DNA of 64,000 nt, taken from the NCBI RefSeq assembly GCF_964204645.1, contig NC_134025.1, positions 14,942,001 to 15,006,000 on the forward strand, written 5' to 3'. Both the position numbers and the translations under genes were made by a program. The DNA is from Tubulanus polymorphus (taxonomy: Eukaryota; Animalia; Nemertea). Under the pieces are notes generated by a model, which was not told the DNA's origin, did no database searches, and saw only the letters and a program-made list of their open reading frames with translations. Positions 492 through 52,986 of the stretch are shown one piece after another. The number at the start of each line of letters is the position of its first letter. The first letter of the stretch is position 1.

Positions 492-3400
492 TTAACCATA
501 AGGTAATGTTTTTATTCCATCACCCAAAATATATCTTATATCATCGAAATGATTTAAACTAGTTTTTTCAACTTCATTAATGTACATTTCGTGATCTTCT
601 GATCTTAAACAATTCATTTAATGTTTCATTACAATTGAGATATATAAACACTTTATATAATCTTGAAATTCTATATGTTTATCAACCACATGTTTTGTTA
701 TTCCTTTTAACTTTTTAGCTGCATGATCTTTTGTTCTATAACTATACGTTTTACTTCTTATCCCAACAAATTCAATCATTTCATCAATTCATCTTTAAAC
801 TTACCAGGAATCTTTTTATTATCATTGCTAAATAGTTCATGATCTTTGGGATAATTGCTAAAATCAAAATGATGTTTTAATGTTTTTAAGTCTTTTGTTA
901 TGTCATTTGTCTTGATTTTTAGTATGTACGCGTCAGTATTTTTTTGGATTAATGGGAACCCAGAATTGAATGTTCCATCATCTGTTGATAAATCATAAAC
1001 ATAGTCAGTTGGGTTATATATTTCAAATAAATCTCTGACATCTTCTGTTAATTCTTTTTCTACATGCCTTAAGTTAAAACAATTTGGTTTAGATTTAATT
1101 AATTCTATATTCATATTAAATCCTAATGAATTACATAATATATACAATCCTGATATAGCAACATTTCCTTTTTGCGCAAATGTTATTACTCGAGATCTCG
1201 TATATTTTTTCTGTCCATCTGCTGCGTAGAATCCAATGAAGAACCATTTGCTAAAATTATATTTGGCATTTAATACATAATCTGGCACTATCTTTTCTTT
1301 TGTTGAAGTATTACTTTTCACTATTGCATGAATATAGAATTCGTCATTATATTTTATAGCAAAATCTTTAGGATTATTCACAAGTATTCTATAAACGGCT
1401 GATGATTTCATAACATCCATGATTCTAAATGTTTTATTTGAATTAACTTCTTCACAGTATTTCTTTATTCTTTTTAATAATTTCAAATCTTGATTGCATA
1501 AATACCAACAATATTTATTACCCCAAACATAATTATACACACCTGCTGAACCATCGCCCATGAAAAATCCTTTGATAAAATATTCTTTTTCTTCTAATGT
1601 TTCAGGTTCTATATTATAAATATTATCAATTATTTCATCAAATGACATATGATTCATTCTTTGGAAAAATCGTTTATGTAATAATTCATCCCCAATTTTC
1701 AGTTGGTTTTATTTCATCGCCATTTCGTTTAATTAAACTATGATCTTCTGTAACATCAACAAATCCTAATTTAGTTCTAACTCTATAAATCTTTTTATTT
1801 GTTTTATGCCTAATAATATTCTTTCCATCCATTTCTTGTCCAAACATCCATTAATCCATTTATTTGTATTAATTCTTTTTCAACATATGAAATATAACGT
1901 TCATTTTGTTTTGGAATTATTTCTGAAATTCTTCTTATCAATATTTTATCATTACATTTTAATAATATTGGGGTGTCAGCTGTTACAGAATCAAAATATA
2001 ATATTTCAATATGATTTTCCCCAAAAAGTGGTTGTAAAACATTGTATTAAAAATCATACATTAATAACTTTGATACTTCTAAAACAGTTGAACCAATGAA
2101 TATAGGTTTATTAAATTTCATTGACGTTCTTTTTAATTTTACCGCGGTTAAATAATCTTCAAATCTTTTATTTCCTAAATGTCTAGGACTTGATTGTAAA
2201 TGTCTTAATCTTTCGGAATTATTTACTAATTCAATATCATTTCTATTTCTAATATTTTCACATGTTTTACCATAAAAACTATTATTCATTAATTTGAAGA
2301 AATCTTTTTCAAAATCTGTTTTTGATATGGTTATCTGTTGTGTATCAAAATCTATATATTTTTCTAACCACTTCGATTGATTAAATTCAATATATCTATG
2401 TACTTTCTTTAATTTCATTCCTTGTTTTAGATACAATTTTAACATTCTATAATGACCAATATAATTGTATTTATTATTTTGAGTTAGTATTAATTTTTCT
2501 GTAAAAACATGATCTTTCGGTTTTATTTTCTTCTGGTATTCACTTAGATAACTATCATCTACAGCTAAATGTTAAGGGCAATAAGGTAAATTTCTTGTTT
2601 TAAACTTTATGTTATCAGGATATTCCAAATCAACTACAAAGAAATAACCAATTGGTACTTCATCTTTTAAACTCGTAATTGCGCTTTCCCAATCAGTTTT
2701 ATCATCTTTTTCAACTTCAGTTAATATAAAATTTTTGTATGGTTGAGGTTGCATCATTGCCCAACCATATAAATTATTGGCGTCAATATATAATAATTTA
2801 TATTCATCATTTGCTTTAAAATGTCTATCTCCCATAACACCACTAATTCCACCTCTAATTGATTTTTCAAATAATAAAACCATGTCTGGTTCTTTTAATA
2901 AATCTAACTCTACGTTAGTATATTTCAAACCACATTGTCAGGTTAAACCAGGACTAGAGTAGCAATAACAAGGATCAACATTAAAATGATTCAAATTAAC
3001 TTCTCCAAATTTTTCAAATATGTCAGCCAATATCATAACATCTGATTTCAAGTAAAGATCAACTAATTCACCATGATTTTCTACCTTAAAATGATTCCAA
3101 AAATGTAATGTTCTATTAAAAACTTCATCTTTCACATACTCCTCTTTTAATTGATCATAAAATTGTTCTTTTAATAATTCTGTTACATTAAAATCATCAT
3201 GTGTTTTATAAAATGAATCAGGAATTGCGCCTTTAAATCTCAATAATTTAAAATCTTGTTCATTTTGGTAATAATGTCGAGTTATTATAAAATCATTATC
3301 AACTAAACTTTTTGCTAAATTATCTAATGAACTTGCTAGAAATCTATAAGAATCTAAAAATCTAATGCAACCAAATTGAAATGAAATATAATTTTCAGAT

Positions 3401-5536
3401 GTTTTAGCTAATAGTTTAAAATCATATTTTCTTACATTTGCTTCATTCATAGCATTATATTCTTCTATTTCTTGATTAATTGCGCCCAATTTTCCTGATG
3501 ATTGTTTTATAAATAGATGGGCATCGTAGCCCGATAAATTATGAAATAATATTGGCACGAAATTAACTTTCTTAGCTTGTAAATTACATTCTTCATGAGC
3601 AGCTCCACGATATTTTGAATTTAAATGATCATGATCTCTAACTTTTTTATCAAATGAATAAAAACGTTTTTCACAATAACAACAATGAATTGCATAATTA
3701 AAATCAATTTCATCTTCTTTTGTCATAACCATTCTTTTATTTTTGTTTAATAATTTTGCAAAATCACTTTCTATTTCAATTATTTTGTTACAAAAATCAT
3801 TAACTACATCTTCACCTCTAAGAGAAATATATTGACTTTCATATAATTCAGGATAATTTGATTTTATGTAAATTCCATAAGCAGCAGCTCTTTGATGATT
3901 TTTTTTAATTGTGTTTATAATTGGTGGATCTTGAATTATGTCTTCATTTAATTCATTTCCTTTATCCATTGATTTCAAAAATTGCTTTTTATTGTATATT
4001 TCTTTTCTATCTTGATCAGTTAATTCTTTATTCAACGATTCAAAATCCCCATAAATTACAAATGGAACAATATTTTTAAATTTATGATTAGTAATTTTCA
4101 ACTTACAATCTTTTTTTGTTGGTATTATTAATTTACAAAAATCTTTATTATCACATAATTCTTTATGTTTTAATAATGTATTCTCAGTCATAAATTTAGA
4201 TAAACATTTTCTACATAGATAAATTTTATGATGATGATCACTTTCTGTTCTAAAGAATAAATCAATTTGTTTTAACCACATATAATGTTCATTATCATCT
4301 TTTTTGTAATATAACAAATCTATAGCATTTTCATCATCATAATATTCTGTTAAATATAAAGCTTCTAATGTATAATCTTTAATATTTTCACCTTTTGTCT
4401 TTGATAATTGCATTAATTCAAATACATTTATTTTTAAATTATTAACTTGTTCTATTTTAGGAATCATCTTTATAGTTACTGGATATTGATCAATTTTATA
4501 TAATGTTTCATATCTCCGTATTTTGTTATTCTAAATCTATGCGTAATATCTTCTGTTGGGTGTAAGCAACTAATAATTGACCATAGAAAACATTTATTAT
4601 CTTCATTTTGAACATTTATTACTGCTTTTGTTGTAAATGGTAATTTGATATAACTTGATGCTTTAATATCCTTTTCTGTTGTAAAGTTTGAATCATTTTT
4701 AAACATTGTTTTACTTTTTGATGTTTTATTCATTTTTGTATTATAAACATTTAAATCTAAAAATATAATTTCATTCAATGTTAAACCAGAACCCTCAAAA
4801 TATCTTTCTTCAATATGACGTTTAAATTCATTAAATATTTTTTCTAACTTCTCTTTTATTTGTGTTTTTGAAATTATTTCTTCAGAGAGTGTTTGAATAT
4901 TATAATCAATTTTCTCTTCTGACTTCATAAAACTTACTTTCCCAGAGATACTAATTTTTGGATATTCAACATCTGTTATCAAATCTAGTATTTTTCCCAT
5001 TATTTCATTAAATTTACTATAATCTTCTATTGTTGTACCTTTAAAAAATCTAAATATAATGGTTTCAGGACCAATTTTACAATGTAATGTTTCTAAAATT
5101 TCAATTGTATCTTTTATTTCTAGTGAATCGATATAATTTCTAACATTTTCCATGTAAGGTTTATTTGAAATGGATTTAGTTTTTGAAGTTGGTTTTTTAC
5201 TTTTTGAGGTTTATCATTGAAATAATCTATTCCTAAAACATTATTACTCAAATTTTGATGGTGTTTTTGTGATTTGGTATGTCTTTCATAATTCCTTTTT
5301 ACTATAAATTCATTACAAACTTCACATTTTATTTCATCAACATTCATATTTTCTAATTGTTCCTTTCTTTCATTGGAATTTTCTGGTGTTTCAAAATCTA
5401 TAACATTTTTTATATGATTTGCAGTTTTTTCATGTCGTGTTTTATTAGATTTATCGACGTATTTTTTACAATATGTGCAATATTATTGATTTTCATTAAC
5501 ATAAATTTGTTTTGTGTGTTGTTCACTCTCTCCCAT
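492..5536 (-). pseudogene. polB: Protein-primed family B DNA polymerase (pPolB-A), intein-containing, with frameshifts and stops
   Basis: Start MGESEQ at 5536; two C2H2 fingers; INVQNEDNKCFLW; ExoI YGDFES; FHNLSGYDAHL; RFLDSYRFL; motif A YIDANNLYGWAM; motif B KLMNNSFYGKT; motif C YFD|TD split by an intein; C-terminus ...KTLPYG* at 492. Confidence 0.93.
938..1989 (-). mobile_element. Intein with LAGLIDADG homing endonuclease inserted in pPolB motif C (YFD|TD)
   Basis: Block A SVTADTPILLK directly after YFD; block B GFVDVTEDHSL; LAGLIDADG motifs FIKGFFMGDGS and FFIGFYAADGQ; block F YVYDLSTDDGTF; C-terminal IQKN followed by +1 Thr (TDAY). Absent from the paralogous pPolB-B. The N-terminal part has about 4 frameshifts. 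Confidence 0.93.
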
Positions 5537-5698
5537 TTATAAGAAAAAAAATTACTTGATGATGGTGATGAGAGGTGTCTCCTCCTCTCGTCCTCTGGTC
5601 TGAAAGCCCACTTTTCCAATTACTTGTCATAAAATAGAAGAAATCAATAATGAAATAGAAAGATTAAATTCAAATAGATCAAAAGATAAAATACCAAA

Positions 5699-5824
5699 AT
5701 AGAAAAAGTATTGAAAACAAAAACTCTTAAAGGAAAAAAGTATTCTTTCGTGAAATATAAAGGATACGATGATAAATTTAATGAATGGATTTTATCTAGT
5801 AAAATTAAAAGAATAAATGAATAA
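5699..5824 (+). pseudogene. C-terminal chromodomain remnant of a Polinton retroviral-like integrase
   Basis: Translates IEKVLKTKTLKGKKYSFVKYKGYDDKFNEWILSSKIKRINE*, a chromodomain pattern (VKxKGY...xW), directly upstream of the ATPase. No DDE core is present. Confidence 0.75.
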
Positions 5825-6427
5825 AGATTTATTTATATTTGAACCGCATAATATGTTAGTTACTGGAGTAACAAACTGTGGTAAAACACATTTCATATTA
5901 AACTTGTTAGAAACTATTTATAAGAATCATTTTGATAATATAATATTATTCTGTCCTACTTATGAAATGAATAAAACATATAATAGAGATATAGTTGAGA
6001 TAAAAAAGTTTATTATATTAGATCCTAAACAGTAAAAGAAAATTTAGATAATTGTATAAAAATAGCATAAGATATTTATAAAAGTTCAAATACATTATTC
6101 ATTATAGATAATTGCGCTAATTTACATGATTCTAAAGTTAGAGAAAGTGAGTTATGTTATCTAGCTTTCTCTGGGAGACATTTCGGGATAACAACATGGG
6201 TTTTAAATCAAAAATATAATTCAATTGTTAAAGATTTTAGGGAGAATATAAGATTTCTAGTTTTATTCTACAATAAAGATAGAAAATCTATGCAACAATC
6301 ATTGGAAGAAAATCAAATTATACCTACCGAGTTACATGATGAATATATGAATAAATTAAAGAATAATAAAGGTTCAAAATTATTACTGAGGCTTCAATTT
6401 CCATATGAATATAAGTTTATAAAATAA
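5817..6427 (+). pseudogene. A32/FtsK-like DNA packaging ATPase (frameshift near 6030 and an internal stop)
   Basis: Walker A GVTNCGKT; continues in another frame with Walker B TLFIIDNC, SGRHFGI, LNQKY and FRENI to a stop at 6427. Confidence 0.88.
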
Positions 6428-7654: not shown

Positions 7655-8892
7655 TTAAAACATAATACTCTCTAATTGTGAATTTACAATATTTAATTGC
7701 GCGTCAGATATAATATAAACGCGCATTTTGAAATTTAAACTTCCTTTTTTCTTTTTCATGAATAATTGTATTCCATCTTTAGTATTTTGTAGTTTTTTTC
7801 CAGAACCATGTAATGAATTATCCTCTGTTGTTCTAAAATCTAACCATAATGCATATTTATTACCGGTATAATAATCAATTTGATTAATATTAAAATTTTC
7901 AAATGATTTTACTTTTTCATTCATAAAATGTTTTCTAATTTCTGGCCATTGATCTATCATTCTCATTCCTTGACGACATATTTTATTTGCTATTCCTTCG
8001 ATAGTTATTTCTACTTTTGATATTTCAGGATTATAATAATTATCAACTTTTATTGCACCATTAGAATATGTTGGTAAAAAATATTAATATACCTTTAATA
8101 GATCTTCTTTGGTAGTTAATATTCTCATTAATTATTTCATCATTTGCATTAATAGTTACAGTTTTAAATTTTTCAATATAATCATATAATAATGAAAATC
8201 CTTGGTTGTATTGAGTTTGAATTATGCTAGCAATATTTTCATCAGTTACTGTATCATATTCCAAACATATATTCGATAATTCATAACCCATATCTTTATT
8301 AACGCTAGATAATACAATTTCATTAACAGGAGCAAATGTTATTTCGAATATAACATCTTCTTGAATTGCGTATATATATAAAATTATTATTTATCAATTC
8401 AAAATCTAATGGAATTTTATATTTGCTTCCATAAATCTTTTTTATCAAATTATCTACAGCATTAGTTACTACTGCGTTATTGGCTTCAGATCTTAATTTA
8501 TTTTGGTTTTCTGATTGGATGCCTTGAAATATCATATTATTTCTATTTTCTTTTGTTAACCATAAATCTTTATAATGCATAAATAAATTATAATTATCTA
8601 ATGAGAAAACTGTTTCTGGCCCAATCTTTACAGCTAATTTTTTAATCAAATATCTCCCAACATTATCAACAACATAATTATTATCATGACCAGTTACTTT
8701 CATATCAGCTGATAAATAGATACTATTTGGAACATAAAAAGTATTTTGTGTTAATCGAGGGATTCTAACATATAAAGTTTCATCGGGATTAATATTAGAA
8801 GGATTATGAGTAATTATATGATGTGATCTTTCTGCTTTAATAGCATTAGATATTCTAGAATTCTTAGAAGGACTTATGTAACTTCCGCTCAT
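7655..8892 (-). pseudogene. Double jelly-roll major capsid protein, split into three ORFs
   Basis: About 410 codons; HNPSNINPDETLYVRIP, NVGRYLIKK, YKDLWL, YELSNICLEYDTV and KYALWLDFRTTEDNSLHGSG resemble invertebrate Polinton/adintovirus MCPs (recognised from memory); position in the element fits. Confidence 0.72.
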
Positions 8893-10426
8893 TTATTTAA
8901 CAAAAAAATTATTTTTTTTTCTATCATATTCACTAACCCAAAAATAATTGCACTTACAACTGTAATTACAAATAAAATAATATGTTCAGCAGCAAAGTTA
9001 AGAATATTCCCAGCAGCGTTCAATATAAAACCAACAATTGATGCAATAACTCCAGGTAAAGCTGCGGCAGATTTTTTAGATAGTTCCCATAAATATTTTG
9101 CTAATTTTTTTAAACCATCCTTAACTTTTTCTTGTATAGAATTATTATCATTCGGGGGTTTATCTGGTTTATTTGGAGTAGGAGTAGATTTCAATGAATT
9201 TGATATAGCTAAACCTATTGTTGTGAATACCATAGTTACAGCTGTTAGAATTGAAAGAATTGTTATACCTTCTAACTTAAATAATAATTTTATTCTATCT
9301 TTCAATGATATTTTAGAATCTGGTTTTATTATTAAATCTTTAAAAATAACTTTTAATTTTTTAATATGATTAAGATCATATGATTTTAATAATATATCTC
9401 TTTCTTTTTCCTGAAATTCTTTGTTATATTTTAAATCATCAATTTCTTTTTCTAAAGATGACTTTCTGCTTTCATAATCAGCTTCCTCTATTACTTGAAG
9501 ATCTCTATTTAATTCTAATTGTTTTAATTCTTCATTTGCATTAGTTAATTCTTTTTCTAACATGGTTATTTTAGAAAATCTCATCTTAATATTAGCAATT
9601 TCACCAGCTGATTCTTGCATACCTTTAATTTCTCTACGTGCTTGTTCAGGAAATGCTTCTAATTCATCATCAGTTAAATCAAGTAATCCTTTTTCTAATA
9701 GATGTTGTATTTGATTTGTTCCAGTACGAGATGTATCTAAAGTACTATTCATCTCTTCTTCTGAATCTCTTAATCTATCAATTTGTTTTTCTAATACTAA
9801 TTGTAATTGACTTGAATCATTATCAATTTGTTGAATATCTCTTCTCGTTGTTTCTGGTGTTGAAGTTCTTAATTTATCTAATCGATCTCCATACTCTTCC
9901 AAATTCTTTCATATTATCATTTCTTTCTTCTTGTGTAACATCAGTTATTTCATTACTATTACTTACTATTTTAATTCTATCTGGTTCTAATTTTTCCAAA
10001 GTTGATTCTGCTAATATTTTGTTTAGTCTTGTCCTTTGATTAGTGATATCAATATAATAATCACCATCAAAATGATAATAATATTTACCTTTTAAAAGTT
10101 TTAAATCTCCTACTAAACATTCGGCATCTCTATAATTTATATTATACCCAGATCTTTCAAATACAGGTTTGAATTTATAAATATCTTCATTATAATCTAA
10201 TCTCTTTTTTTACTAAATGTGGATTTACATTTTCGGGATTTATTCTCTGTTCATCATTTCTATCAAATTCATCTGTTGATGGGGCTTTAGAACCACTATC
10301 TGCTGGATTAGAATTATACGCTGATTCGTCATCATTATCAATATTAGTTTCATTAAAATCAGGTTGTGGTTCATCACTTATACCGGGGGTGTCACCAAAA
10401 GTATCCATTGGAATATCTTCTTCCAT
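8889..10426 (-). pseudogene. Acidic/coiled-coil protein with C-terminal hydrophobic helices
   Basis: ORFs 10190-10426 and 8889-9902 join by collinearity with the paralog 22643-23920; hydrophobic segments ITILSILTAVTMVFTTIGLAI and AAALPGVIASIVGFIL...IILFVITVVSAIIFGL. Confidence 0.7.
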
Positions 10427-10447
10427 TTATATAATAAAAAATTAAAA

Positions 10448-11759
10448 TTAAAAATATAATATTCCTCCTATAACAATTCCTATACAAGTTAAAGCTAATT
10501 TAGCATTTTCATGGGATTTATTATCATCATTTAGTTTAATTATTTCATGTTGAATATTATCAGTTTTAATATTTTCTGATGTATTGTAATCTTTTATTTT
10601 AGAATCATTATTTAATTTAATATTATTAGTTTTAGTTTCTGTTGATTGAATATGTTTTTTATTTTTTTCACCTTCCATTAATTTTGGAGCAGTAATTATC
10701 TTTTTATATATATCATTTAATCCAAATGAATTATTTATTGTTGCAGTTTTAATTAGATTATTATAACCAATTATATTTCCCATCTTTAATACTAAATCAT
10801 TAGAAATAATTAATAGATTAGGACCTATACAATAATTTAATCTAATATGTGATTTATCTAAGTAATTTTGATATCTTACAATGTTTTCTGGAATCGATCT
10901 ATTTTTATCATTATGAATGGAATCTTCAAATAATACTTTGAATTGTTTCTGCGAATCAAATGAATGTATCATTTCCAACTATTGGTGATCTTGTTGAACT
11001 TGCGCACCTAAAATACATATCAAATAAGTTCTAATTGATTGATTTATTCTTTGTATGCCCGATTTTGTAAAACCTTCACTATTTTCTAAAATAAAATTAA
11101 TCCAACCATTATTATTATCAATTTTATAATTATGATAAGCTCCAATTCTATGCATATAATCAATTCTTTTTATTTCATACTGTTCACCAATACCTTGCAA
11201 TTTACCATGCGCTCTAAAATCGGAATTAATATTTAAAAATAATTAAATTCATAATAATTAAATTCATTACATATTTTATAAAACTTAGATAGATTAATAT
11301 TATTATCCAATTCTTTAAAATATTTAGATCCGGGTAAAGGACATTCTAATTCATTTAATATTATTCTGATTTGAAAATATGTGTGAAATCTAAATATTGT
11401 GTGAATTAATTTTAAATCAGAATATTTCAAATTTTTATCTAAGTTATTTAAATGATCATTCCAAATTATACCACAACCAGTTGTTGCACAATAAACAGCA
11501 AAATTTAATTGATTCTGCCAATATTTCATATTAGATTTTACTTTATATATATGATATTCATCTCGAGTAAAAGTAACTTCATATCTGCTAAATATATTTT
11601 CCATTTTAGAAATAAAAAACTGTGATTCAGTAACATAAATCTCTAAATAAGTTAATGAAATTAAACTGAATTTTTATATGTAATATTTTTAATCAAATCT
11701 ATTGCAGGAATATTATATTTAATTGATTTATTATATTGGAAAGCTTTTGGAAACCCCAT
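10448..11759 (-). pseudogene. Conserved Polinton protein (WQNQLNFAVYCATTGC motif) with C-terminal TM helix
   Basis: Three ORF pieces collinear with the paralog 21303-22626; ends LALTCIGIVIGGILYF. Confidence 0.7.
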
Positions 11760-11775
11760 TTATATAAGTAAAAAA

Positions 11776-12210
11776 TTAATAATTTATTAATTCTTTTAAT
11801 AATTTATCTTGTTCTTCAACTGTAATATTACCATTTAAACTCATTATATAATCTAGTGTATTCTTTAATTTATTAATTTCTTTTATATTAGTTTTAATTT
11901 TTTCTTTATTACTTTATATATTTAATTTTGAACTTATGCCGGTTAATACACTTGATTATAATCCGAACACACCAATTGATATAGCTAAAGGTGTTAATGG
12001 ACTGAATATTGCTAGAAATGTTATTACAGAACTAATTGTAACCGAACCACTGATAATAAGATAATATATAATTTTACTTTTTAAATATTTTTTCTTTTTT
12101 ATCTTTAAGTCACTTTCAAATTCTAATATTTGTTTTTCTAAATATATTTTTAATTTAGTTTTACTGATATCATGATGAATAATATTAACACCATCAACTT
12201 TATCATCCAT
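11776..12210 (-). pseudogene. Small two-TM protein
   Basis: Hydrophobic IIYYLIISGSVTISSVITFLAIFSPLTPLAISIGV; paralog at 20851-21286. Confidence 0.6.
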
Positions 12211-12228
12211 TTATTTAGCAAAAAATTA

Positions 12229-12663
12229 CTAATTAGTAAATTTATAAGCAACAAATATAACTTTAACTGTTCCCCCTAAAATCCAAATTATTCCATATTT
12301 CTTCTGTTCATTACTTGGGGTATAATAATCTGATATTGTAGGTTTATGTAGATGTAATTTTTCTTTATTGGTTACTGCGTTTTATAAACTCATTGCATCA
12401 TCAACTGATTGAAAATCTCTATGTGAAATCTTCTGATTACATAATTCCTTGTTAATATAATCCATATAGTTTTGTCTTTTTTCTCTGTATTCTTCTGCAG
12501 CTTTATTATATTTTTTTTAAATTATATTTATATTTAAGTTATGTCTTTTTTGTTCTGTTAATGAACCATTTTTATCAATATGTATAAATAAATAACCACC
12601 ACCAGTAAATGCTAAAGCGTTAACAATTGCTGATCCTAAAATAGTTATAATTGCAGAAGCCAT
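12229..12663 (-). pseudogene. Small protein with N- and C-terminal hydrophobic segments (not in ORF track)
   Basis: MASAIITILGSAIVNALAFTGGGYLF...; paralog MAPAIITIVGSAIVNALVFTGGG at 20404. Confidence 0.6.
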
Positions 12664-12686
12664 TTATTTAGCAAAAAAATATGCAT

Positions 12687-12908
12687 TTATATGGGAGGAA
12701 TATATTTTTGTTTTTCCAAATAATCAATAGTTAAATTAGATAAAGTAACTGCTAATGTTAATTTTAAAATATCATTAATATCAAATCTATCAACATTAAC
12801 ACTTCCCATTTTAAATACTTTTTTTAATACCATTGTATAACCAACAGTTCCAACTGATAATAATGCTCCATTATATAAACCAGTTATTATCCACTTATTA
12901 TCACTCAT
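12687..12908 (-). CDS. Small hydrophobic protein
   Basis: Intact 73-aa ORF, conserved with 20160-20387. Confidence 0.7.
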   Translation of the reverse strand: MSDNKWIITGLYNGALLSVGTVGYTMVLKKVFKMGSVNVDRFDINDILKLTLAVTLSNLTIDYLEKQKYIPPI

Positions 12909-13252
12909 TTATTTATAAAAAAATTACTATCTTCAAAATATTTAGTTATCTTATTTATGATTAATTCAACATTTATTTCAATACTAGTTTCATTTTCATA
13001 TATTACAGTTATTATTCTTTTAATATCATCAATGATAAAATCTTCATCTAATTCATAAAATCTTAAAGACTCGGTTATCTTTTCTACATAAAAAGTTTCT
13101 TTATCTATTGTTTTTTCATACTCAAATGTTGTTTCATTAGAAAATGCAATATTTTTAATATGTGTTATTACATCATTAATGTTAAATTTCATTTCTTTCT
13201 CATGTTTAAAATCAAATCCAAAACATATACTCGATCCAACAGTTATATTCAT
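12905..13252 (-). CDS. Hypothetical viral protein
   Basis: Intact 115-aa ORF; paralog 19817-20152 shares MNITVGxSICFGFDFKH. Confidence 0.7.
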   Translation of the reverse strand: MNITVGSSICFGFDFKHEKEMKFNINDVITHIKNIAFSNETTFEYEKTIDKETFYVEKITESLRFYELDEDFIIDDIKRIITVIYENETSIEINVELIINKITKYFEDSNFFINK

Positions 13253-13268
13253 TTATAAAGTGAAAAAA

Positions 13269-14026
13269 TTACTCTTTACATCTTATAATTAATTCATAAA
13301 TTATAGGAAAGTTATTCAAATCAATTACATAACCATTATGATTTCTTATTTCTAATTTGAAATTGTTAAATCGTGAAATACAAGGTTTAAAATCAGATTC
13401 AGCTAAATTATAATTAATTTGTGTTCCCAATTTTTTAAAATTTTTTTAATGGTATAATATTTGATATACTAGAATTACAAGTTATATCTTTAGTTGCTTC
13501 GAAATTTTTGTAGCATCAATTAAATTGCAATAAATATAAAAGTGAAAAAAGGCATTATATTTGAATTACCATCTACGTTTCCTGTAACAATATCTGGTGC
13601 AATTCCTAACAATTTAGCTAATGGTTTTCTCACCATAAATGAATGTTGACTTTCATCATGTAACTTTATTTTAATTTTATTTGTGCTATCACTTTTTATA
13701 AATCTAATTAAAAATTTATCTTCACTTCTAATTTTCAACCGTGCTCTTCTATTAATTTCTTGCGCTAGTGTTTCTAAATTATATAATCCTGGTTTTAAAA
13801 TTAGATGAAACCATTTATTTATATTTCTAAAATGAATTAAAAAAATATTATGATCAATAGTTTTACTCGATACATTATAAAAAGAATTACATAAACTTCC
13901 ATTTACTAATTCTAAATCAACACAATTCTTAAATTCTCTATCTAATTGTACTAGTAAATTATGAGATTTATAATTTGTAAGTTTTCTAGAATCAACATGT
14001 ATTCTATATTCTTTTAATTCTACCAT
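13269..14026 (-). pseudogene. Minor capsid (penton, single jelly-roll) protein
   Basis: YRIHVDSR, NSFYNVS, LKPGLYNLETL; after frameshifts ends FNNFKLEIRNHNGYVIDLNNFPIIYELIIRCKE*, a typical penton C-terminus. Confidence 0.7.
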
Positions 14027-14423: not shown

Positions 14424-17400
14424 TTAACACGTTAGAATTCTTTTCATTATCTCCTTCTCTTTTGTTTCTTCTCTTTTGAACTTTAGATATACATCTAAAT
14501 TGCATCCATAAGAAACTGTATGAATTCCATCATCTAAAATATATCCTTTATCATCAAATGGATTCAAACTAACCTTTTCTATCTCTTCAATAAACATTTC
14601 GTGATCTTCTGATATTAAACATTTCATCTTATGTTTTCTAACTTCTTCATTGAATATACAATTGATATAATCTTTGAAATGAATATTCTTTTCTACTACA
14701 CTTTTAGTAATTCCTTTTGTATATATATATAATTCCTTTTAACTTTTTAGTATCATGTTCTTTAGTTTTATATGAATACATTTTAGATCTAATACCAATG
14801 AATTCAATCATTTCTTCACCACCTAATTCATCCTTAAACTTCCCGGGTCGCTTTTTATTATCATTGTTAAACAATTCATGATTTTTAGGATAGTTACTAA
14901 AATCGAAATGATGTTTTAATGTTTTTAAATCATCAGTTATGTTATTAGTTTTTATCTTTAATATGTAACTGTCAGTATCAAAGTATAGAATTTCTATATG
15001 CTTTTCTCCAAAATGAGGTTGTAATACATTATAATAGAATTCATACATCAATAGCTTTGATATTTCTAAAACTGAAGCACCAACATAGATTGGTTTATTA
15101 AATTTCATAGAAGTTCTTCTCATTTTAACTGCAGCTAAATTTTCATCAAATATTCTGTTACCTAAAAACTTAGGATATGATTGTAAATGCCTTATCCTTT
15201 TACCATTACTAACTAACTCAATATCATTTCTATTTCTAATATTTTCACAAGTCTTACCATAGAATGCATTGTTCATTAACTTGAAGAAATCTTTCTCAAA
15301 ATCAGTTTTAGCTTCAGTTCTCTGTTTGGTGTCAAAATCTATATATTTTTCTAACCATTTAGATTGACTGAATGAAATCTATGTACTTTTTTTAGAACCA
15401 TTCCTTGATTCAAATAAAACTTCAACATTCTATAATGTACTACATAATTATATTTATCTTCCTGAGTTACCATTAACTTTTCTGTATGAATATGATTTTC
15501 GGGTTTAATTCTTTTTTGGTAATTTGATAATTCTTCATGAGTTACAGTTTTATGTTCAGGGCAGTATGCTAGATTTCTAGATTTAAATTTAATATGTTCA
15601 GGATATTCTAAATCTACAACAAAGAAGTAACCAATATCTGAATCATCTGCAATATCTAGGATTCTTTTATTCCAATCAAATTTATCATTATTTTCATGTT
15701 GTAAAACTTCACTTATTTCAAATACTCCATAAGGTTGTGGTTCCATCATTGCCCAACCATACAAATTATTTGCATCTATATATAATAACTTATATACAGG
15801 GTTATCATTTACATTGAAATATCTATCCCCTAATACACCTGAAACTCCTCTTATAGATTTTTCAAATAATAATAATTGATCTATATTAGTTAACAAATCC
15901 ATTTTTATATCCGTAAATTTTAATCCACAATCCCAAGTTAAACCTGGGCTAGAATAACAATGGCAATTATCAATATTGAAATATTTTGGGTTTACATCTC
16001 TAAACCTTCCAAATATATCCGATAATAATAATACATCTGATTTTAAATATAAATCTACTAATTGTCCATGATTTTTCATTCCAAAATGATTCCAAATATT
16101 CAATGTTCTATTATATACTTCATCTTTAACATATTCAGTTTTTAATTCATCATAGAATTGTTCTTTCAATAATTCAGTTATATTAAAATAATTATGATTT
16201 TTATAGAAAGAATATGGAATTGCGCCTTTATATCTCATTAATTGGAAATCATCATTATTTGGATAGTTTTGTTTTAATATTTTTAATTCATCATCAACTA
16301 ATGATTTTGAAGTTATCTAATGAACTATTTAAAAATCTATATGAATCTATAAATCTTACGCAACCAAATTGGAATGATATATAATTCTCAGATATTCTAG
16401 CTAACATTTTAAATTTATAAGTTGGTATTTTATCTTTTGATCTATTTGAATTTAATCTTTCTATTTCATTATTAATTTCTTCTATTTTATGGCATAACTG
16501 TTTGATAAATAAATGTGCATCATATCCTGATAGATTATGAAATATAACTGGAAGAAAATTTACTTTTTTGGCTTGTAAATTGCAATTCTCATGCGCAGCG
16601 CCTCTAAACTTTCCATTCAAATGATCATAGTCTCTTACTTTTTTATCTTTATAATTAAATATCTTTTCACAATAATAACATTTACCCGTAAACACAAATG
16701 CTTCTTTATCTTCTTCTGTCATAATTATTTCTTTATTTGTATTCAATAATTTACTAAATCTTATTTCATATTCAATTAATAAGTCACAAAAATGATTGAT
16801 AACATTTTCATTTCTATAATGATAATATTCACTTTCAATTAGTTCTGGATAATCAGATTTAATATATAACCCGAAAGCAGCAGCTGATTGATGAATCTTT
16901 TTAATTGTATTTGTTTTTGGTGGTTCATCTGAAAAATCATTTTCATTAGAATTTAATTTCTTTCTTTTATAATATATTTCTTTTCTATCTTGATCAGTTA
17001 ATTCTTTATTTAATGATTCAAAATCTCCATATATTACAAATGGTACTTTATTTTTGTAATCATATTTTTTGAATTCTAATATTTTATCTTTTTCATTTGG
17101 TAAAACTAATTTACAATAATCATGATTATCACATAATTGTTTATGATTTAATAATGTACTTTTATTACTGAATCTATGTAAACATTTTCTACATATATTT
17201 TACGATGATGATCACTTTCTGTTCTAAAGAATAAATCGATTTGTTTAATCCACACATAATGATTTTCATAATATAACATATCTATAACATCATTTGAATC
17301 ATAATCTTTTGATAGGTATAAAGGTTCTAATGTTAATTGTTTTATATTGTTGCCTTTTGTTTTTGGTAATTTGATTAAATCAAATACATTTATTCTCAAA

Positions 17401-18466
17401 TTATTATCTCTTTCAATTTTGGGATATTTTTAATTCTAACTGGATACTTATCTATCTTATAATTATTTTCAAATGGTTTATAATTTGTTAATCTAAAACT
17501 ATGTGTAATATCTTCTGTTGGATGTAAGCAACTTATAATTGTCCATAGAAAACATTTATCATCAAAATTTTGTACATTTATAACAGCATTAGTTTTAAAT
17601 GGTAGTTTAATATAACTTGATGCTTCAATATCTGGTTCTTTATAATATGATACATTATTTTCATCTATTGGTTTTGATTTAGTTAACTTATTATATTTTG
17701 TGTTATACACATGTAAAGTCATAAATATTATTTCATCAAATATTAAACCTGATCCTTCAAAATATTTCTCTTCTATTTTAGTTTTTACTTCATTATAACA
17801 TTTATCTAATTTATCATCTATATGTTGTTTTGAAATAATATGTTGTGAATGGGAATTCATATTATATATTGGTTTATCTTCAGATTTTATAAATTTAACT
17901 TTTGATGAAATACTTATTTTAGGATATTCAACATCAGTGATTATTTTTATAATATTTTTCATATTTTCTAAATGTTTTTTATTTTCTTCTAATGTTTTTC
18001 CTTTATGAAATTTAAACTCGATAGCTGCTGGGCCAATATCACTTTTAAATGCTTCGGTTATGTCTATATCTTTTTTATTATCTAATGAATTAATATAATT
18101 TCTTACATCTTCCATGTATGGTCTTTTATTGTTTAATTTATTTCTTATTCTTTCAATTGTCTTATGTTTCTTATCATTATCAAAATAATCCTAACCTAAA
18201 ATATCATTATTCTTATTTCTAATATGACTTTTAGATTTTAAATGTTCATTATAATATCTTTTATCACTGAATGATTGATTACATGTATCACATTTGTATA
18301 TTTCTTTTTCATTCTTTAATTCATCTAATTTAGTTTCTAATATATGATCTTCATATTCTAATTTCAATTTATTCTCTAAATGTGTTTTAGTTTTATTGTG
18401 TCTTGATTTTTGGGATTTATCTATATTGATTTTACATGTTGAACAGTAGTACTTATTTGTTTCCAT
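14424..18466 (-). pseudogene. polB: Protein-primed family B DNA polymerase (pPolB-B), intein-free, with several frameshifts
   Basis: Two N-terminal C2H2 fingers, INVQNFDDKCFLW, FHNLSGYDAHL, YIDANNLYGWAM, MNNAFYGKT, uninterrupted YFDTDS, GKFKDE, SLNPFDDK. Confidence 0.93.
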
Positions 18467-18749: not shown

Positions 18750-18920
18750 GAGTAATAGGGGAATGTGGCTTTCATATCAAAGGTTGAAAGAGTTAGTGAG
18801 TAAAAAATAACAATAATTAGTCGCGCACACTCCTAATTCAACTGGAAATTATTGTTATTTTCATTTTTACGAGCTCGACCTTTCGACCTTTGGTATGAAA
18901 GCCACATTCCCCTATTACTC
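18750..18920. repeat. Inverted repeat/hairpin at the element B terminus
   Basis: 18750-18790 is the reverse complement of 18880-18920 (41 bp, 2 mismatches); inner arms AAAATAACAATAATT / AATTATTGTTATTTT. Confidence 0.9.
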
Positions 18921-19643
18921 GAAACAATTCTGGAAATTGATAAATTCGCACAGCAATTCTAACATTCCAACTGACAACGTCACCCTTACATCCAATGACT
19001 TTTTTGATCACTTCGCTGACCTAAACGCTCACAATGAGACCGAAGTTTTGGATACGGAAACAGATCTACTTTTAGACGATATAGATGACTCTATGCTTAA
19101 TGCTGAAATAACTATGCTAGAATTAAATAAAGCTATTCCTTCCTTAAAAAACAACAAAGCTACCGGTATGGATCTAATTTGTAATGAAATGATGAAAAAT
19201 TTCGATGATAATTTACGCTCATTCTTTCTTCAACTCTTTAAGATGGTATTGATGAGTGGCATTATCCCAGAAAGCTGGACTATAGGCACTTTTAAACCGA
19301 TATTTAAGAATAAAGCCAATATTGATTGTACGGATAATTATAGAGGTATAACGCTAGTTAGTTGTTTAGGCAAACTTTTTACAAATATCCTTAATAATAG
19401 ATTAACATGTTTTATGAATGTAAATAAACTTTTAAGTGAAAATCAAGCAGGATTTAGAGCGGGGTATTCTACTACCGATCACTATTCCCACTTAAGTCTA
19501 TTGTTGAGCTATACCTTAATCAAGGTAGACATCCTTTCTGTAGTTTCGTAGTCTTCCGCAAGGCCTTTGACTCCGTATGGAGAATTGCTTTATGGAAAAA
19601 GATGATGGCTTTAGGTATAAAAGGTCTCTTTTTTAACACCGTG
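18921..19643 (+). pseudogene. Non-LTR retrotransposon (LINE) ORF2 reverse transcriptase fragment
   Basis: LKNNKATGMDLICNEM, PIFKNK, NYRGITLVSCLGKLF, QAGFRAGYSTTDH and (frameshifted) FRKAFDSVWR. Confidence 0.9.
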
Positions 19644-22600
19644 CATTATGATTTAACAGAATGTGATTTTAAACCTTGCATTTCACAATTTAATAATTTT
19701 AAGTTAGAAATTAAAAATCATAATGGTTACTTAATTGATTTAAATAACTTTCCTGTGGTATATGAATTAGTTGTAAGATGTAACGAATAATTAAAGATTT
19801 TTTAATAATAATAGATATGAATATAACAGTAGGACCGAGTATATGTTTTGGGTTTGATTTTAAACATGGTAAAGAAATGAGAATTAAACTAAATGATGTA
19901 ATTACTGATATTAAACGTAAACCATTTAATAATGCATCAATGATTAATAAAGAAAATTATAATATAGAAAAAGTAACTGATTTAATCAAAACATCTTTAG
20001 AATATTATGAATTAAATGAGGATGGAATTATCGATGATATTAAAAACATATTATCTAAAATATATGATAATCATAAAAGTAGTAATGAAATAAATGTTGA
20101 AATAATTATAACTAAGATAACTAAATATTTTGAAGAAGGTGATTTTTTTTGATAAATCAATGAATGATAATAAGTGGATCATAACTGGTTTATATAATGG
20201 AGCATTACTGTCAGTGGGAATGGTTGGTCATACAATGTTATTGAAGAAAGTATTTAAAATGGGTAATATTAATGTTGATAGATTTGAAATCAATGATATT
20301 TCAAAATTAACATTAGCAGTTACTTTATCTAATTTAACCATTGATTATTTAGAAAAACAAAAATATATTCCTCCTATTAACGCGTAATTTCTTTGTTAAA
20401 TAAATGGCACCTGCAATTATAACTATTGTAGGGTCGGCAATTGTTAACGCTTTAGTATTTACAGGCGGTGGTTATTTATTCAAGCATATTGATAAAAATG
20501 GTTCATTTTCAGAATAAAAAAGACATAACTTAGCGTTAGAAAAATATAATAAAGCAGCAGAAGAATATAGAGAAAAAAGACAAAACTATATGGATTATAT
20601 TAATAAAGAATTATATAACCAAAATATTTCACATAGAGATTTTAAGTCAGTTGATGATGCTATGAGTTTATATAATGCAGTAACAAATCGTGAAAAATTA
20701 CATCTATATAAACCTAAATTATCAGATTATTATACACCAAGCAGTGAACAGAAGAAATATGAAATAATTTGGATTTTAGGTGGAACTGTTATTGTTATAT
20801 TTGTAGCATATAAATTTACACTTAATTATTTATTATTTTTTGTTAAATAAATGGATGATAAAGTTGATAATATTGATATCATTCCTCATGATATAAATAA
20901 AACTAAATTAAAAAAATATTTAGAAAAACAATTATTATAATTAGAAAATGATTTTAAAGTTAATAAGAAAAATATTTAAAAAGTAAAATTATATATTATT
21001 TTATTATTAGTGGTTCAGTTACAATTAGTTCTGTTATAACATTTTTACCAATATTCAGTCCATTAACACCTTTAGCTATATCAATTGGCGTTTTAGCTTT
21101 AAGTTCAAGTGTTTTAACCGGAATAAGTTCAAAATTAAATATAAAAAGTAATAAAGAAAAAATTAAATCAAATAAAAAAGAAATAAATAAATTTAAAAAA
21201 AATACATTAGATTATATATTAAGTTTAAATGGTAATATAACAATTGAAAAGCAGGATAAATTATTAAAAGAATTAATAAATTATTAATTTTTTATTAAAT
21301 AAATGGTAGATAGTTTTCCAAAAGCTTTCCAATATAATAAATCAATTAAATATAATATTCCAGCAATAGATCTTTATAAAAATATCACATATAGAAATGA
21401 AGTTTTAAATTCATTTATTAATTTAGATATTTATGTTACTGAAACTAATAATTTTAATGTTAAATGGAAAATATATTTAATGTATATACAATTAATTTTA
21501 CAAATTTAAATGAGGCATAACAATGGTTATCAAAATCTAATATGAAGTATTGGCAGAACCAATTAAATTTTGCCGTTTATTGCGCAACAACAGGGTGTGC
21601 TATAAGATGGAATGATCATTTAAATAAACAAAGTTTATCATTAATATTATCACTTTTTATATTTCAAACATATTCTCAAATAAAATTAAAATTAAATGAA
21701 TTAGAGTGTCCTTCACCAGGATCTAGATATTCTAAAGAATTAGATAATAATATTAATTTTTCTGAGTTCTATAAAATCTGTAATGAATTTAATATTAATT
21801 CAAATAATTTCAAAGCAAAAATTGGTACAATGGGTGGATTAGGAATATTATATACTAAAGAATTTGGTAAAATGATAACAAATTCGGATTTAAGAACACT
21901 AAATTGGAATGAATTACCAAAATATTATAATAATATACAACAACAAAATAATGATGGATGGATTAATTTCATATTAGAAAATAGTGAAGGTTTTACAAAA
22001 TCAGGCATACAAAGAATAAATCAATCTATTCGAATATATTTAATTTGTATTTTAGGTGCACAAGTTGAAACAATATCACCAATATTTGGGATTAATAATA
22101 CTTCATTTGATGCGCAGAAACAATTCAAAGTATTATTTGAAGATTCTATTCATAATGATAAAAATAGATCGATTCCAGAAAACATTGAAAGATATCAAAA
22201 TTATTTATCAGATAAATCTCATGTAAGATTTAATTATTGCGTAGGTCCTAATTTATCAATCATTTCTGATGATTTAATATTAAAAATGAGAAATATAATT
22301 GGTTATAATAATTTGATTAAAACTGCAATAATAAATAATAAGTTTGGGTTAAATGATATAAATAAAAAAATTATCACTGCTCCAAAATTAATGGAAGGTG
22401 AAAAAATCAAAAAGAATATACAAACAACTGAAATTAAAACTAAGAATATTAAATTAAATAATGGTCCTAAATTAAAAGATTACAATACATCAGAAATATA
22501 AAAACTGATAATATTCAACATGAAATAATTGAAACTAATAATGATAATAAATCACATGAAAATACTTAATTAGCTATAACTTGTATAGGAATTGTAATAG

Positions 22601-23920
22601 GAGGAATATTATATTTCAAATTGTAAATTTTTTATTTTATAAATGGAAGGTGTAGAAGGAATTCCAATGGGAAGACACGGGAAATAATAATGATGGATAT
22701 ATTGATGATGATTATAATGATGTAGGTGTTAATGAAACTAATATTGATAATGATAGAATGAAATATAATTCTAATTTACCAGATAGTGGTTCTAAAGCCC
22801 TGTCAACAGAGGAGTTTGATAGAAGAACTAAATCGAGTATAAATACTGAAAATGAAATTCTAGATTTAGTAAAACAAAATTTAGAATATAGTGAATTTAT
22901 TCATATATTCAAACCTTTATTTGAAAAATCTGGATATAATATAAATGATAGTGGTGCTAGACTTTTAGTAAAAGATTTGAAATTTTTAGATGGTGAATAT
23001 TATTATCGTTTGAAAGATAATTCGGATTATTATATTAATATCACTTATAAAAATCAAAATAGAATATTAGCAGAATCAACTTTGCTTAAGTTAGAACCAT
23101 CTAGAATTAAAAGAATAATTAATAGTAATGAAATCAAAAATGTTACACAAGAATAAAGAAATCAAAATATGCGAGTATTTAAACAAAGATTTGATAAATT
23201 ATTTAAAGCAATCAAAAATAATTTAGAAACAGAAACAACTTCTGAACAGAATACAACTTCCAAAACTAGTAAACTTAAATCGAATAAAGTTCCAAATGAA
23301 AAACTTTTACTTAATGGATTACTTGCAACAGATCAAGAATTAGAAGAATTAGATACATTTTTTGATAATGCAATTAGAGAAATTACTAGTATAAGACTTG
23401 CATCTGTTAAAATTGCACATGATAAAAGTATAAGAGATTTTAAAATTAAAACTTTAGAAAATGAATTAACTGATGCAAATAAAGAATTAAATCAATAAAA
23501 AGTTAGATTTAGAACAACAAGTAATTGATGAAATAGAATATAGACAAAAAGTATTAAGTTTAGAAAAAGCAATTGATAATTTAAAAGATAATTTAGAAGT
23601 ACAGACAGAAGAAATTAAATTTTTATCAAAATCATATGATTATTGTATAAATAGATTAAAAGTTATTATTAAAGAGTTAATAATAAAACCAGTTTCTGAT
23701 ATATCATTGAAAGATAGAATAAAATTACTATTTAAACTAGAAGGTTTAACGATTCTATCAATTCTAACAGCTGTAACTATGGTATTTACAACAATTGGTT
23801 TAGCTATTTCAAATTCTTTAAAATCTAGACCAAATCCTAAACCACCTGATGAACCCCCAAGTCATAATTCTATACAAAATAAAGTTAAAGATGGTTTGAA
23901 AAAATTAGCAAAATATTTAT
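19644..23920 (+). mobile_element. Partial Polinton-like element C: inverted, diverged paralog of the element B structural block
   Basis: Same gene order as 13410->9095: penton 3' end (19644-19790), 19817-20152, 20160-20387, 20404-20850, 20851-21286, 21303-22626, 22643-23920. Truncated before the MCP. Confidence 0.88.
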
Positions 23921-23984
23921 GTTATATATTTATTCATTTATGTTAAATATTTATATTTTTTTTAACTTTAGCAGATATACTAAT

Positions 23985-24400
23985 TTCAGGATATTCTACG
24001 TCTGTAATTACTTTTATAATATTTTTCATATTTTCTAAATGTTTTTTATTTTCTTCTTATGTTTTACCTTTATGAAATTTAAACTCGATAGCAGTTGGTC
24101 CTGTATCACATTTATATATTTCTTTTTCATTCTTTAATTCATCTAATTTAGTTTCTAATATATCATCTTTATATTCTAATTTCAATTTATTTTCTAAGCG
24201 AGATTTAGTATCATTATGGCTTGCTTTTTGAGATTTATCTATATTGATTTTACATGGACAGTAGTACTTCTCATTAGCTTCCATTTTAATAACAAATTTT
24301 TTTATTAAAATTGATTTTATACTATTCGAAATCTATATCGTGGTGCCCTTTTTCATTCTCACCTTTATATATGAAAAAGAAATCACCTGATTATAATTCT
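23985..24400 (-). pseudogene. Scrambled Polinton fragments: internally deleted pPolB 5' end and 3' end of the OB-like gene
   Basis: 24057-24284 fuses the Zn-finger region (..KCDT) to GPTAIEFKFHKGKT; 24322-24400 encodes ..SGDFFFIYKGENEKGHHDIDFE*, like the 14041 gene. Confidence 0.75.
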
Positions 24401-43654: not shown

Positions 43655-45065
43655 CAGGGGCGGATCCAGGGGCATGTTGTGACCATGTCAACCAATAAAA
43701 AGGGCACATGCCTATGTTCTTAATTTAGGGCAGGAAGGCATATTAGCAAATTTTCTTAAATTCTACTATCATTTTAGAGCTTTCTGAGCATATCTGAGAG
43801 GCATTTAGTCAAGAAACATAGGTTATATATTTTGGAAAAATATCCATTGTGTATCTCAGGTGGTTACGACGGCAAATTTTGATACAGAGAAAAAATAACT
43901 AGGGGTCCAGGGACACCATGCCCACTTGGGAAGTGGTTCGAAATGCTCAACAATCTAACAATTTCAATATTCAATGCCCCCTGGTGACCATATACAGAAT
44001 CCAATGACCTTGAAACTCACCACAATCATAGAACATGTCAGCAGCTACGATTTTGTAATTGATTGTGATAACAAAATATGCCTCATTACCACTTTAATAT
44101 GGAAATACTAAGTTATTCTACTATTCAACGCCCCCTGGTGACCATATTCAAAACCCAATGACCTTGAAACTCACCACAATCATAGAACATGTCACAGACT
44201 ATAACTTTGTAATTGATCATGGTAACAAAATATGCCTAGGTACCAATATAATAAGGAAATACTAAGTTATTCTACTATTCAACGCCCCCTGGTGACCATA
44301 TAGAATAACTAATGACCTTGAAACTCACCACAATCATAGAACACGTTATGAGCTACATCTTTCTAAATTATTGTGGTAACAAAATACGCTTAGGTATCAA
44401 TATAATGTGGAAAAACTTTTTTCCACTTACGAATGAGTACTGCTGACACCAAGATGGCCGCCAATTGCGTCATAATTGGCTGATGAAAAATACCTGTCTC
44501 AGGTAGGCCTATAAAACACCCCTTTCCAAAGAATACCCATCACAAATTGCAATGAGAAATGATAAACCAGTAGGAAGCTACAGGACTCAGAATTTGGGCC
44601 AAAATTAACATTTTTGGGCACTAAAAAGGTCATAGGATGGCCATCTTGAGTCCGATCGACCCAATTTTTGTTATGCTGATGGGCCCTGGGGGAATTCACA
44701 TATATCCGAAAGATCAAGGTAATTGATCAAAGCGTCTTCAAAATTTCCCTCAAAAAGTTCAAAAATGTGTAAAAAGTGCTGATTTTGGCGAACAACAATG
44801 GCTGCCAGTCGGCCATCTTGAATCTGACAGGGCCAGTTTTTGGGCGGAAGATGTGTCTGGGGTAGATACATGTGTAACCCAACTATCAAGACATTACCTT
44901 GAAGATCTTCAAAACTTCCCAAAATAACTGGATTCCGTCTACGGACGGACGGACGACGACGGACGAAAAGTGAACGCAATAGTCCCAAGTCCTAAAGTCC
45001 CAAGTGGGCTAAAAAGGCACTTTAAAATTCCGACCGTGTCGGTGACAGGTCTAAATCCGCCCCTG
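43655..45065. mobile_element. TIR element (CAGGGGCGGAT ends, 5-bp GGTTC flanks) with a nested Helentron-like element
   Basis: CAGGGGCGGATCC at 43655 and AAATCCGCCCCTG at 45053-45065; GGTTC on both sides. Confidence 0.6.
43897..45014 (+). mobile_element. Helentron-like non-autonomous element with internal ~150-bp tandem repeats and GGAC microsatellite
   Basis: Starts AACTAGGGGTCCAGGGAC (also at ~39322); 3-4 repeat units; (GGAC)n; ends ATAGTCCC..GTGGGCTAAAA (related ends at ~45170-45222 and, reversed, ~61205). Confidence 0.7.
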
Positions 45066-45727
45066 GGTTCACACGCTCAATTTTATAAGCCTACTGGTGC
45101 ATTAATAATTGTAACACATTCTCATAGTTACTTATAGCCAAAAAAATAGCCTAACTGGATTCTGTCCACGGACGAAAAGTGAACGCAACAGCCCGCTGGT
45201 ACAAGTCCCAAGTGGGCTAAAAATGCTATAGGTTCATGTCATCTCGCCCTCGGTAAATTGTGTCATCTTGGTAATTAGGTGGACACCAATGGCTCATTTG
45301 CATAAAGAAATAAACAAACACGAACAAAATGGCGATCTTTCTCGCCGATTTAAAGCTTAATTTCCGAGTGTAAAATGGATATAAAGACGATGATTTATCT
45401 GGACTGTATAACTCTGCTGATTCGATTAAGACCTATTTGAGGTATGCACACCCAAAAATAAGCGAAATATCCCAATAAGATCATGGACAATAGAAAATAG
45501 CCTAGACTATTTTAGTCAAAAGTTTTGAGTTACTACGATCGTCAAAAGCTACTTAGGATAATCAATCTAGGCCTATGCCAAAACAATAGTCCAACTTCCT
45601 AACTTCCATCGAATTACAGAACGGCCAGAAGGCCTATGACTGAGGTAGGTAAGTTGATGGGGGTTTATTTAAATGGATGAAATAGACACTCAAAGCCTAG
45701 TTCCTTTTTAGTCGGCCTACTACGTAC

Positions 45728-46100
45728 CTGATATTTTTAATTGGACTAATTTTGAAGTTCGTATCTTCGGTGACGTTCCTAATGATTCTTTTGAAAGATA
45801 AGGCCTTGGCACCAATGATGACGACACTGCAACCCAATCAAATGATCCTGGCATGGACTTTTCATTCACACAGTCGAAGTTGTAAATGGCCAGGCACCTT
45901 TCTCTCTCCTCTTCGACCATTTCTTGTAATAATGTATCCGTATCCTTAATATCAATCTTACATCCGCTATCGTCTGAATCTTCGAAACATAATTTCCTAC
46001 GAGCTCTGCTCTTAGAAGCCGACTGACGGCGTTTTAAAGACGAAATATCGCAAAATTCATTTCCATCCGCTGCGGAGCGCGCAACACACGCCATTTTCAT
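45728..46100 (-). CDS. Cip/Kip cyclin-dependent kinase inhibitor (CDKN1/dacapo-like), exon 1
   Basis: CDI domain: ARRKLCF (cyclin-binding RxL), YNFDCVNEKSMPGSFDW; ends QLKIS G|GTACGT (phase-1 donor inside the PIP box); likely start at 46100 or at AAAATGG 46094. Confidence 0.82.
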
Positions 46101-46184
46101 GTCCGAAACAATGTATGCCTCAACACACGACACACACTACATACACTCACACTGTGAGTAGGCCCAGACACGCAGCGTGCCAGT

Positions 46185-52711: not shown

Positions 52712-52986
52712 ACTCTAAGCCACTCATGTCAATAATTGAAAAACCCATTATGCTAAAACGTTATAATGAACGTTATTCTGTATATTTAAATGGAGGGGGG
52801 TATCAAGTTCTTTTGAAGATGTCAGTGGTGCTAATATGGAGGCGTTGGTAATGCACTTGAGATTTTCGGTGTAGGCCACATCCAACCCAGTGACTCCAGC
52901 GAGTTTTGTTTATAGTGTTTATTGTATCACATATGGACCATGCACCCGATCTCACAGTATCAAAGTTGCCAAATTCAGAATACTTT

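Follow-up and report, generated by a model that had tools for sequence, protein, structure and literature searches.

The window, a stretch of 64,000 nucleotides of genomic DNA, opens with 24.4 kb of AT-rich sequence (21–27% GC vs 33–41% beyond) that carries the remnants of Polinton-like elements. Two decayed genes for protein-primed family B DNA polymerases (pPolB), here termed A and B, lie in this region on the same strand. The former is interrupted by an intein and the latter is not. The features that concern the two copies and their element context are the following:

495–5482, minus strand: pPolB-A, an intein-bearing pseudogene with 4 stop codons and about 5 frameshifts
938–1989, minus strand: pol-c intein of 1,052 nt in A, with Ser1 (SVTADTP), block B (GFVDVTEDHSL), the C-terminal segment YVYDL...IQKN and Thr+1
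1214–1570, minus strand: LAGLIDADG endonuclease region within the intein, with motifs GFFMGDG (1570–1550) and GFYAADG (1234–1214) in an unbroken frame, 1690–938
5817–6427, plus strand: A32-like packaging ATPase gene, frameshifted (Pox_A32 25.5 bits, cut-off 22.8, first piece)
7655–8892, minus strand: probable major capsid protein gene, split into three pieces (weak Capsid_N match, E=0.006, below cut-off)
13520–14026, minus strand: DUF5901-like open reading frame, possibly a virion protein (match below cut-off)
14427–18466, minus strand: pPolB-B, an intein-free pseudogene with 1 stop codon and about 5 frameshifts (PF03175 above cut-off in 15351–16238)
14962–14991, minus strand: empty insertion site of pPolB-B in polymerase motif C, ILYFD/TDSYI (the slash marks the junction, 14977/14976)

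The profile for protein-primed PolB, PF03175, matches both B and the relative P0004, and the named relatives are proteins of animal genomes. No retroviral-type integrase or cysteine protease was matched among the stop-to-stop open reading frames of at least 45 aa between and beyond the polymerases, in elements that are fragmented and of which A reaches the window edge. Terminal inverted repeats or a target-site duplication that would mark clear termini are absent from the 25 pairs listed of 435, and the long inverted repeats within 1–27000 belong to an internal inverted copy of 81% identity. This copy is a second, inverted block of accessory genes, about 78–81% identical (19645–23180 vs 9901–13414 and 23343–23921 vs 9088–9668), and it is the remnant of a third related element. 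A LINE-type reverse transcriptase fragment (18817–19790, plus strand) is located between the upstream end of B and the inverted block. At the join of A and the ATPase gene, an inverted piece of 81 bases (5625–5705) is 94% identical to the interior of B (16414–16494) and is a recent local rearrangement. Shuffled scraps of a pPolB N-terminus, 83–87% alike to B, occupy the edge of the AT-rich cluster (23921–24400). Further along the window are an exon of a Cip/Kip cyclin-dependent kinase inhibitor (45723–46136, minus strand; PF02234 above cut-off, best PDB match p21 with E=0.004), an ISXO2/Merlin-like transposase domain (49882–50451, minus strand), a 154-base tandem repeat with dispersed copies (43968–44417), and a direct duplication of 2.25 kb at 97% identity (52984–55229 and 58273–60504) that includes a weak TCF25-like piece. 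The Cip/Kip-like exon, which is the main ground for it, and also the LINE pieces and the transposase suggest a probable animal host.

Both polymerase copies are decayed. Stop codons interrupt A at 2940, 2574, 2049, and 620, with frameshifts near 5170, 4518, 1820, 1700, and 785, those near 1820 and 1700 being inside the intein. In B, one stop codon (18193) is accompanied by frameshifts near 17415, 17200, 16310, 15375, and 14720. Neither copy in the window can yield a polymerase. The two copies align with 73.7% identity in blastn over A 1986–5160 and B 14973–18122, and with 72.5% over A 496–939 and B 14506–14978. In a global alignment they are 76–77% identical from end to end, with the 1,052-nt insert in A as the sole exception. 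Each copy has a closer relative elsewhere: for A it is P0132, an empty polymerase of the P0013/P0132 lineage (85% over 434 columns of the polymerase core), and for B it is P0011 (87% over 445 columns).

All residues expected for splicing are present in the insert of A, namely Ser1, the TEDH (TxxH) of block B, the terminal Asn and Thr+1. The penultimate residue is Lys in place of His. We considered this Lys as a possible defect and rejected the idea; KN is the ending of 17 of the 41 parsed viral inteins and HN of 15. Both LAGLIDADG motifs retain their acidic catalytic residues, and the region matches the endonuclease profile PF14528 with 29.2 bits (cut-off 22.5). A relative with an intact reading frame, P0004 (1,693 aa), carries a 354-aa in-frame intein at the same position and matches PF03175, Intein_splicing and LAGLIDADG_3. 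The intein profile TIGR01445 scores 29.3 for the relative P0002, above its cut-off of 24.5, and 23.6 for P0004, just below it, with weak matches for the pieces in the window; PF14890 scores 30.2 against P0004, below its cut-off of 35.8. By its position and these residues, the insert in A is a true class 1 intein of the pol-c allele, of a kind predicted to splice and to home. The copy in the window itself cannot be made as an intein, because two frameshifts precede the ATG at 1657. That ATG falls within the intein coding sequence, and the open reading frame that starts there is an internal piece of it. Searches with the intein piece gave no match among PDB sequences; the ESM Atlas gave none at 0.9 or more, Rfam returned no matches, and no plasmid sequence matched P0004.

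The junction in B reads, on the minus strand, CTA TAC TTT GAT/ACT GAC AGT TAC ATA at 14977/14976. In A, TTA TAT TTT GAT ends at 1990, the intein runs from 1989 to 938, and ACT GAC GCG TAC ATA starts at 937. Both junctions are exactly as the initial annotation had quoted them, and its proposal that the empty site fixes the intein boundaries is borne out by intein-skipping reads (see below) and by the intein of the intact P0004 at the same place. The best match in the window to the joined flanks of A is the site in B, with 24 of 30 bases, while the runner-up places have 9 mismatches. On each side 12 of 15 bases match, and the six differences comprise three synonymous changes upstream and the codon at +3, which encodes Ser in B and Ala in A; 9 of the 10 residues around the site agree. 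Ala at +3 is found in A and in the intein-bearing P0001 and also in the empty P0133, P0026, and P0038, and Ser is found in B and also in the intein-bearing P0004 and P0283, so that this residue is no clean marker of the intein. The accessible portions of PMC3159444 and PMC3024317 describe intein endonucleases as tolerant of silent changes in the target and hampered by non-synonymous ones, and homing as hampered by short homology, with flank length mattering for the Haloferax polB intein. The site in B is thus a plausible and reasonable candidate target, as had been suggested, but not the best one, given its non-synonymous +3 change and its divergence. Emptiness at this position is common: among the best 120 of 2,128 matched proteins, 119 relatives of B are empty, P0004 being the exception, although a search with the C-terminal piece of B favours unsplit genes and somewhat overstates emptiness. 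An empty motif C is the default state of the pPolB family, and the site in B is unremarkable by itself. An upstream motif common to A and B was also sought, and the candidate scored 35, below the best shuffle at 42.

To place the two copies in the context of the species, we consulted sequencing reads. Between 29 and 40% of the sampled words of A are present in four runs under one species label; a marine metagenome run contains only a small share of them, and no RNA run is among the listed runs that contain these words. Raw reads from about 12% of run X6, another sample with the same species label, were mapped with a likeness limit of 85% onto A and of 90% onto B. Over A, the median depth is 216 in nine intein bins and 340 in 18 extein bins, of which the six lowest are at 250–290; the similarity of 216 to these lowest bins indicates that most A-like copies bear the intein. 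Among the joints listed, beside which there are eight more, 52 reads skip the intein at its exact boundaries and represent several different Thr-Asp-Ser sites: 17 join 937 to 1990, and 35 join 928 to 1990 across nine bases that encode Thr-Asp-Ser. At two of the stop codons of A, the letters of the window occur in 4 of 260 and 5 of 260 reads (under 2%), and about half to three quarters of the reads differ from A at its two intein frameshifts. The mismatch at the stop codons implies that the polymerase family is multicopy and that the lesions of A look private; unbroken inteins may exist elsewhere in the genome. The read depth may reflect tens to hundreds of copies in the species. Over B, the depth is about 330–350 and continuous through the junction, as expected of empty B-like copies. 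The intein is thus present in the majority of A-like copies, and B-like copies seldom or never carry it, though a filled minority may exist among them. The coexistence of intein-plus and intein-minus alleles noted for A and B therefore extends to the reads, with a depth of about 216 for filled and about 330 for empty sites.

Six intein-bearing pPolBs were found: A, P0001–P0004, and P0283, a distant sequence with an extein that reaches no more than 43% identity to the panel. In a 35-row intein tree built with a quick method, in which viral inteins were limited to those of at least 300 aa after removal of duplicates and of two mis-parsed rows, the five pPolB inteins of A and P0001–P0004 form one side of a branch with support of 100. 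A 62-row FastTree, which left out nine unparsed sequences of the 60 top matches, groups all six with five extein-less fragments (support 98). These unrooted trees place the pPolB inteins beside those of giant viruses. The exteins of the best 150 of 508 intein matches are 134 RNA-primed PolBs, 2 pPolBs, and 14 unassigned proteins, and a motif scan of viral contigs yielded 94 loci, mostly of the form YGD/S...N/TDS and some in another gene. Since the intein trees are unrooted, a giant-virus donor is suggested solely by abundance and diversity. Scans with back-translated patterns retrieved no intein-bearing pPolB locus in three passes over viral contigs, two loci in a metagenome, both empty relatives, and no intein-bearing pPolB DNA in prokaryote genomes, where two weak loci were found. 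One pPolB of the clade studied here, P0017, is labelled as a Bartonella protein and is probably host DNA in that assembly. Closely related inteins also occupy a second allele site, after TDAD, TDQD, or TEGD in a long non-PolB gene of viral contigs (L005, L029, L032, L036, L051, L052, L059, L069, L074, L076, L077, L079, and others).

In a 33-row extein tree, also built with a quick method, the four intein-bearing rows, two of them short (72 and 101 aa), are scattered and need 4 changes, and a single clade is rejected (p-AU 5.9e-6). A sits with the empty P0132 and P0003 with the empty P0024. The intein and extein trees agree in outline, with A next to P0001 and P0003 next to P0004, and A and P0004 are 60% identical in the intein and 56–62% in the extein core. 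These data would fit a single entry into pPolBs with later gains and losses.

Taken together, our observations favour a reading in which the site in B is an ordinary motif C, and the pol-c intein of A was likely captured from a giant virus and likely homed among close viral relatives, with no sign of this in the lineage of B. We assign this joint reading a probability of roughly 0.7. An ancestral pPolB would have met a nucleocytovirus in one cell and taken up the intein through the shared YxD/TD motif. Within an active element, the intein would be removed by its own splicing and would cleave the empty motif C of a relative replicating alongside, into which recombination would then copy it; some lineages would later have lost the intein or escaped from it. 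Conversion should be feasible in close relatives of the kind represented by P0132 and poor in B, which is 24% diverged and has Ser instead of Ala at +3, because long similar flanks are needed. The intein would have homed as other pol-c inteins do and entered the host genome inside the lineage of A, and the copies in the window would be dead passengers of two separately integrated lineages.

The alternative that best withstands the data dispenses with homing in this virus group and assumes a single entry, vertical inheritance, and many precise losses. The agreement of the two trees means that homing explains the data no better than ancient vertical inheritance with recurrent loss, and the similar identities of A and P0004 in intein and extein point the same way. 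However, many independent precise losses would be required, with empty sisters at 85% identity, and both LAGLIDADG motifs are retained across inteins that are only 60% identical. In theory, an unused endonuclease decays. We regard descent without homing as improbable.

Slightly less probable still is ongoing or recent homing among the endogenous copies, in which an intact endonuclease of the A type would cut and convert sites of the B type, as the initial annotation had envisaged. Filled and empty types are both present in many copies, the endonuclease motifs of A are intact, the stop codons of A are mismatched in 256 and 255 of the 260 reads, so that unbroken inteins may be present elsewhere, and the residues around the site in B are nearly those of A. 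Homing from paralog to paralog is described in Anaeramoeba in the part of PMC10710043 available. However, the search for co-conversion tracts at the site that had been suggested, when run, gave none between the flanks of A and B. Their likeness is at background: 25 of 30 and 22 of 30 bases are identical adjoining the site, compared with 120 of 150 and 123 of 150 further out, and among codons for the same residue 7 of 13 and 6 of 12 are identical beside the site, compared with 48 of 75 upstream and 29 of 44 downstream. Furthermore, A is nearest to the empty P0132 and not to B, the two lineages are 24% apart with a non-synonymous change at +3, and sites of the B type are still empty in many copies although they lie beside the intein. 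No end joined to the intein is found among the loose ends of B-like reads listed (6 of 37, with 19–63 reads each). Homing between these endogenous copies is thus not borne out.

A candidate for co-conversion was considered in residues +1 to +50, on the 3′ side of the intein, where A is unlike P0132. The difference is significant against one of three references: with P0012, none of the 5 informative sites favours P0132 (p=0.004 for a flank), whereas P0011 (p=0.12) and P0014 (p=0.55) do not support the patch. At 4 of the 5 informative sites A shares the state of most outgroups, and the patch mostly reflects change on the branch of P0132; we therefore rejected it. Several changes of their own are also seen in P0132 and P0013 at residues +8 to +14 past the site, for which drift or target escape are possible.

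That the endonuclease acts mainly as a weapon, destroying competing empty elements and fragmenting loci such as this one, is very improbable: in 27 B-like reads a junction does fall at 14966, at a distance of ten bases from the site, but its loose part is not an intein end and one such position near the site is expected by chance among 37 in 361 bases, while the site in B is unscarred and the breaks of B are at least 250 bases away, which also speaks against the earlier suggestion that cutting had fragmented the locus.

According to the text available of PMC549080, YxD/TD is the pol-c allele site, used by the Mimivirus PolB intein and at archaeal position III. The intein of A resembles the pol-c inteins of family B polymerases in this site, in Ser1, the terminal Asn and Thr+1, in its length of about 350 aa, and in its LAGLIDADG endonuclease; its KN ending is also shared with viral inteins. 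The identity of its group to the ten best viral pol-c inteins is 30–37%. In contrast to those systems, which reside in RNA-primed PolBs, the host here is a protein-primed Polinton-like polymerase, the pPolB inteins form a group of their own, and the flanking DNA agrees with that of giant-virus sites at only some 15 of 30 bases.

PMC10748475 describes Polinton/Maverick (adintovirus) pPolBs into which HNH or VSR nuclease domains are inserted, and in the portion of PMC11071308 available such insertions are suggested to derive from intein invasions. The word "intein" occurs 0 times in the accessible text of PMC10748475 and of PMC8502044. The present case is similar in having a nuclease domain within a pPolB, and B itself has a weak Endonuclease_7-like match. 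Unlike the HNH and VSR insertions, which are described without splicing motifs, a full Hint domain with a LAGLIDADG endonuclease here splits the catalytic motif and is matched by an empty allele. The main text of PMC10710043 reports that endogenous viral polymerases of Klebsormidium, Tetrabaena, and Hondaea contain inteins and that an intein has spread within the genome in Anaeramoeba. Common to those cases and ours are intein-bearing viral polymerase genes on nuclear scaffolds and the presence of empty and filled paralogs in one genome; the earlier cases concern algae and protists, in a main text from which the word "polinton" is absent, whereas here a multicopy Polinton-like family is found in what is likely an animal. 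Surveys place eukaryotic inteins in fungi, algae, some protists, and nucleocytoviruses, and the accessible text of PMC5784728 names neither Polintons nor animal nuclear genomes. We found no report of a true pPolB intein in the literature, mainly open-access text taken without supplements; an entry may stand in the intein tables that accompany PMC5784728 and PMC10710043. The intein is a real pol-c allele in a host class, pPolB, for which, provisionally, there is no earlier report.

A broader proposal is that a giant-virus pol-c intein with a live endonuclease colonised animal-associated Polinton-like viruses and now numbers tens to hundreds of copies within an animal nuclear genome, where empty targets are more numerous still. 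It would then be a true intein of a metazoan genome and a natural multicopy gene drive among endogenous viruses. We regard this as speculative and rather unlikely as a whole, if less so than the alternatives above. The empty site in B alone is of value only for marking the boundary and as a natural substrate. The presence of a pol-c intein in protein-primed polymerases would directly record an exchange of genes by giant viruses and Polinton-like viruses that shared a cell, and this exchange would span polymerases whose target DNA agrees at only half the bases. The many filled and empty alleles in one species would allow the homing cycle, and any escape from it by target lineages, to be tested by copy counts.
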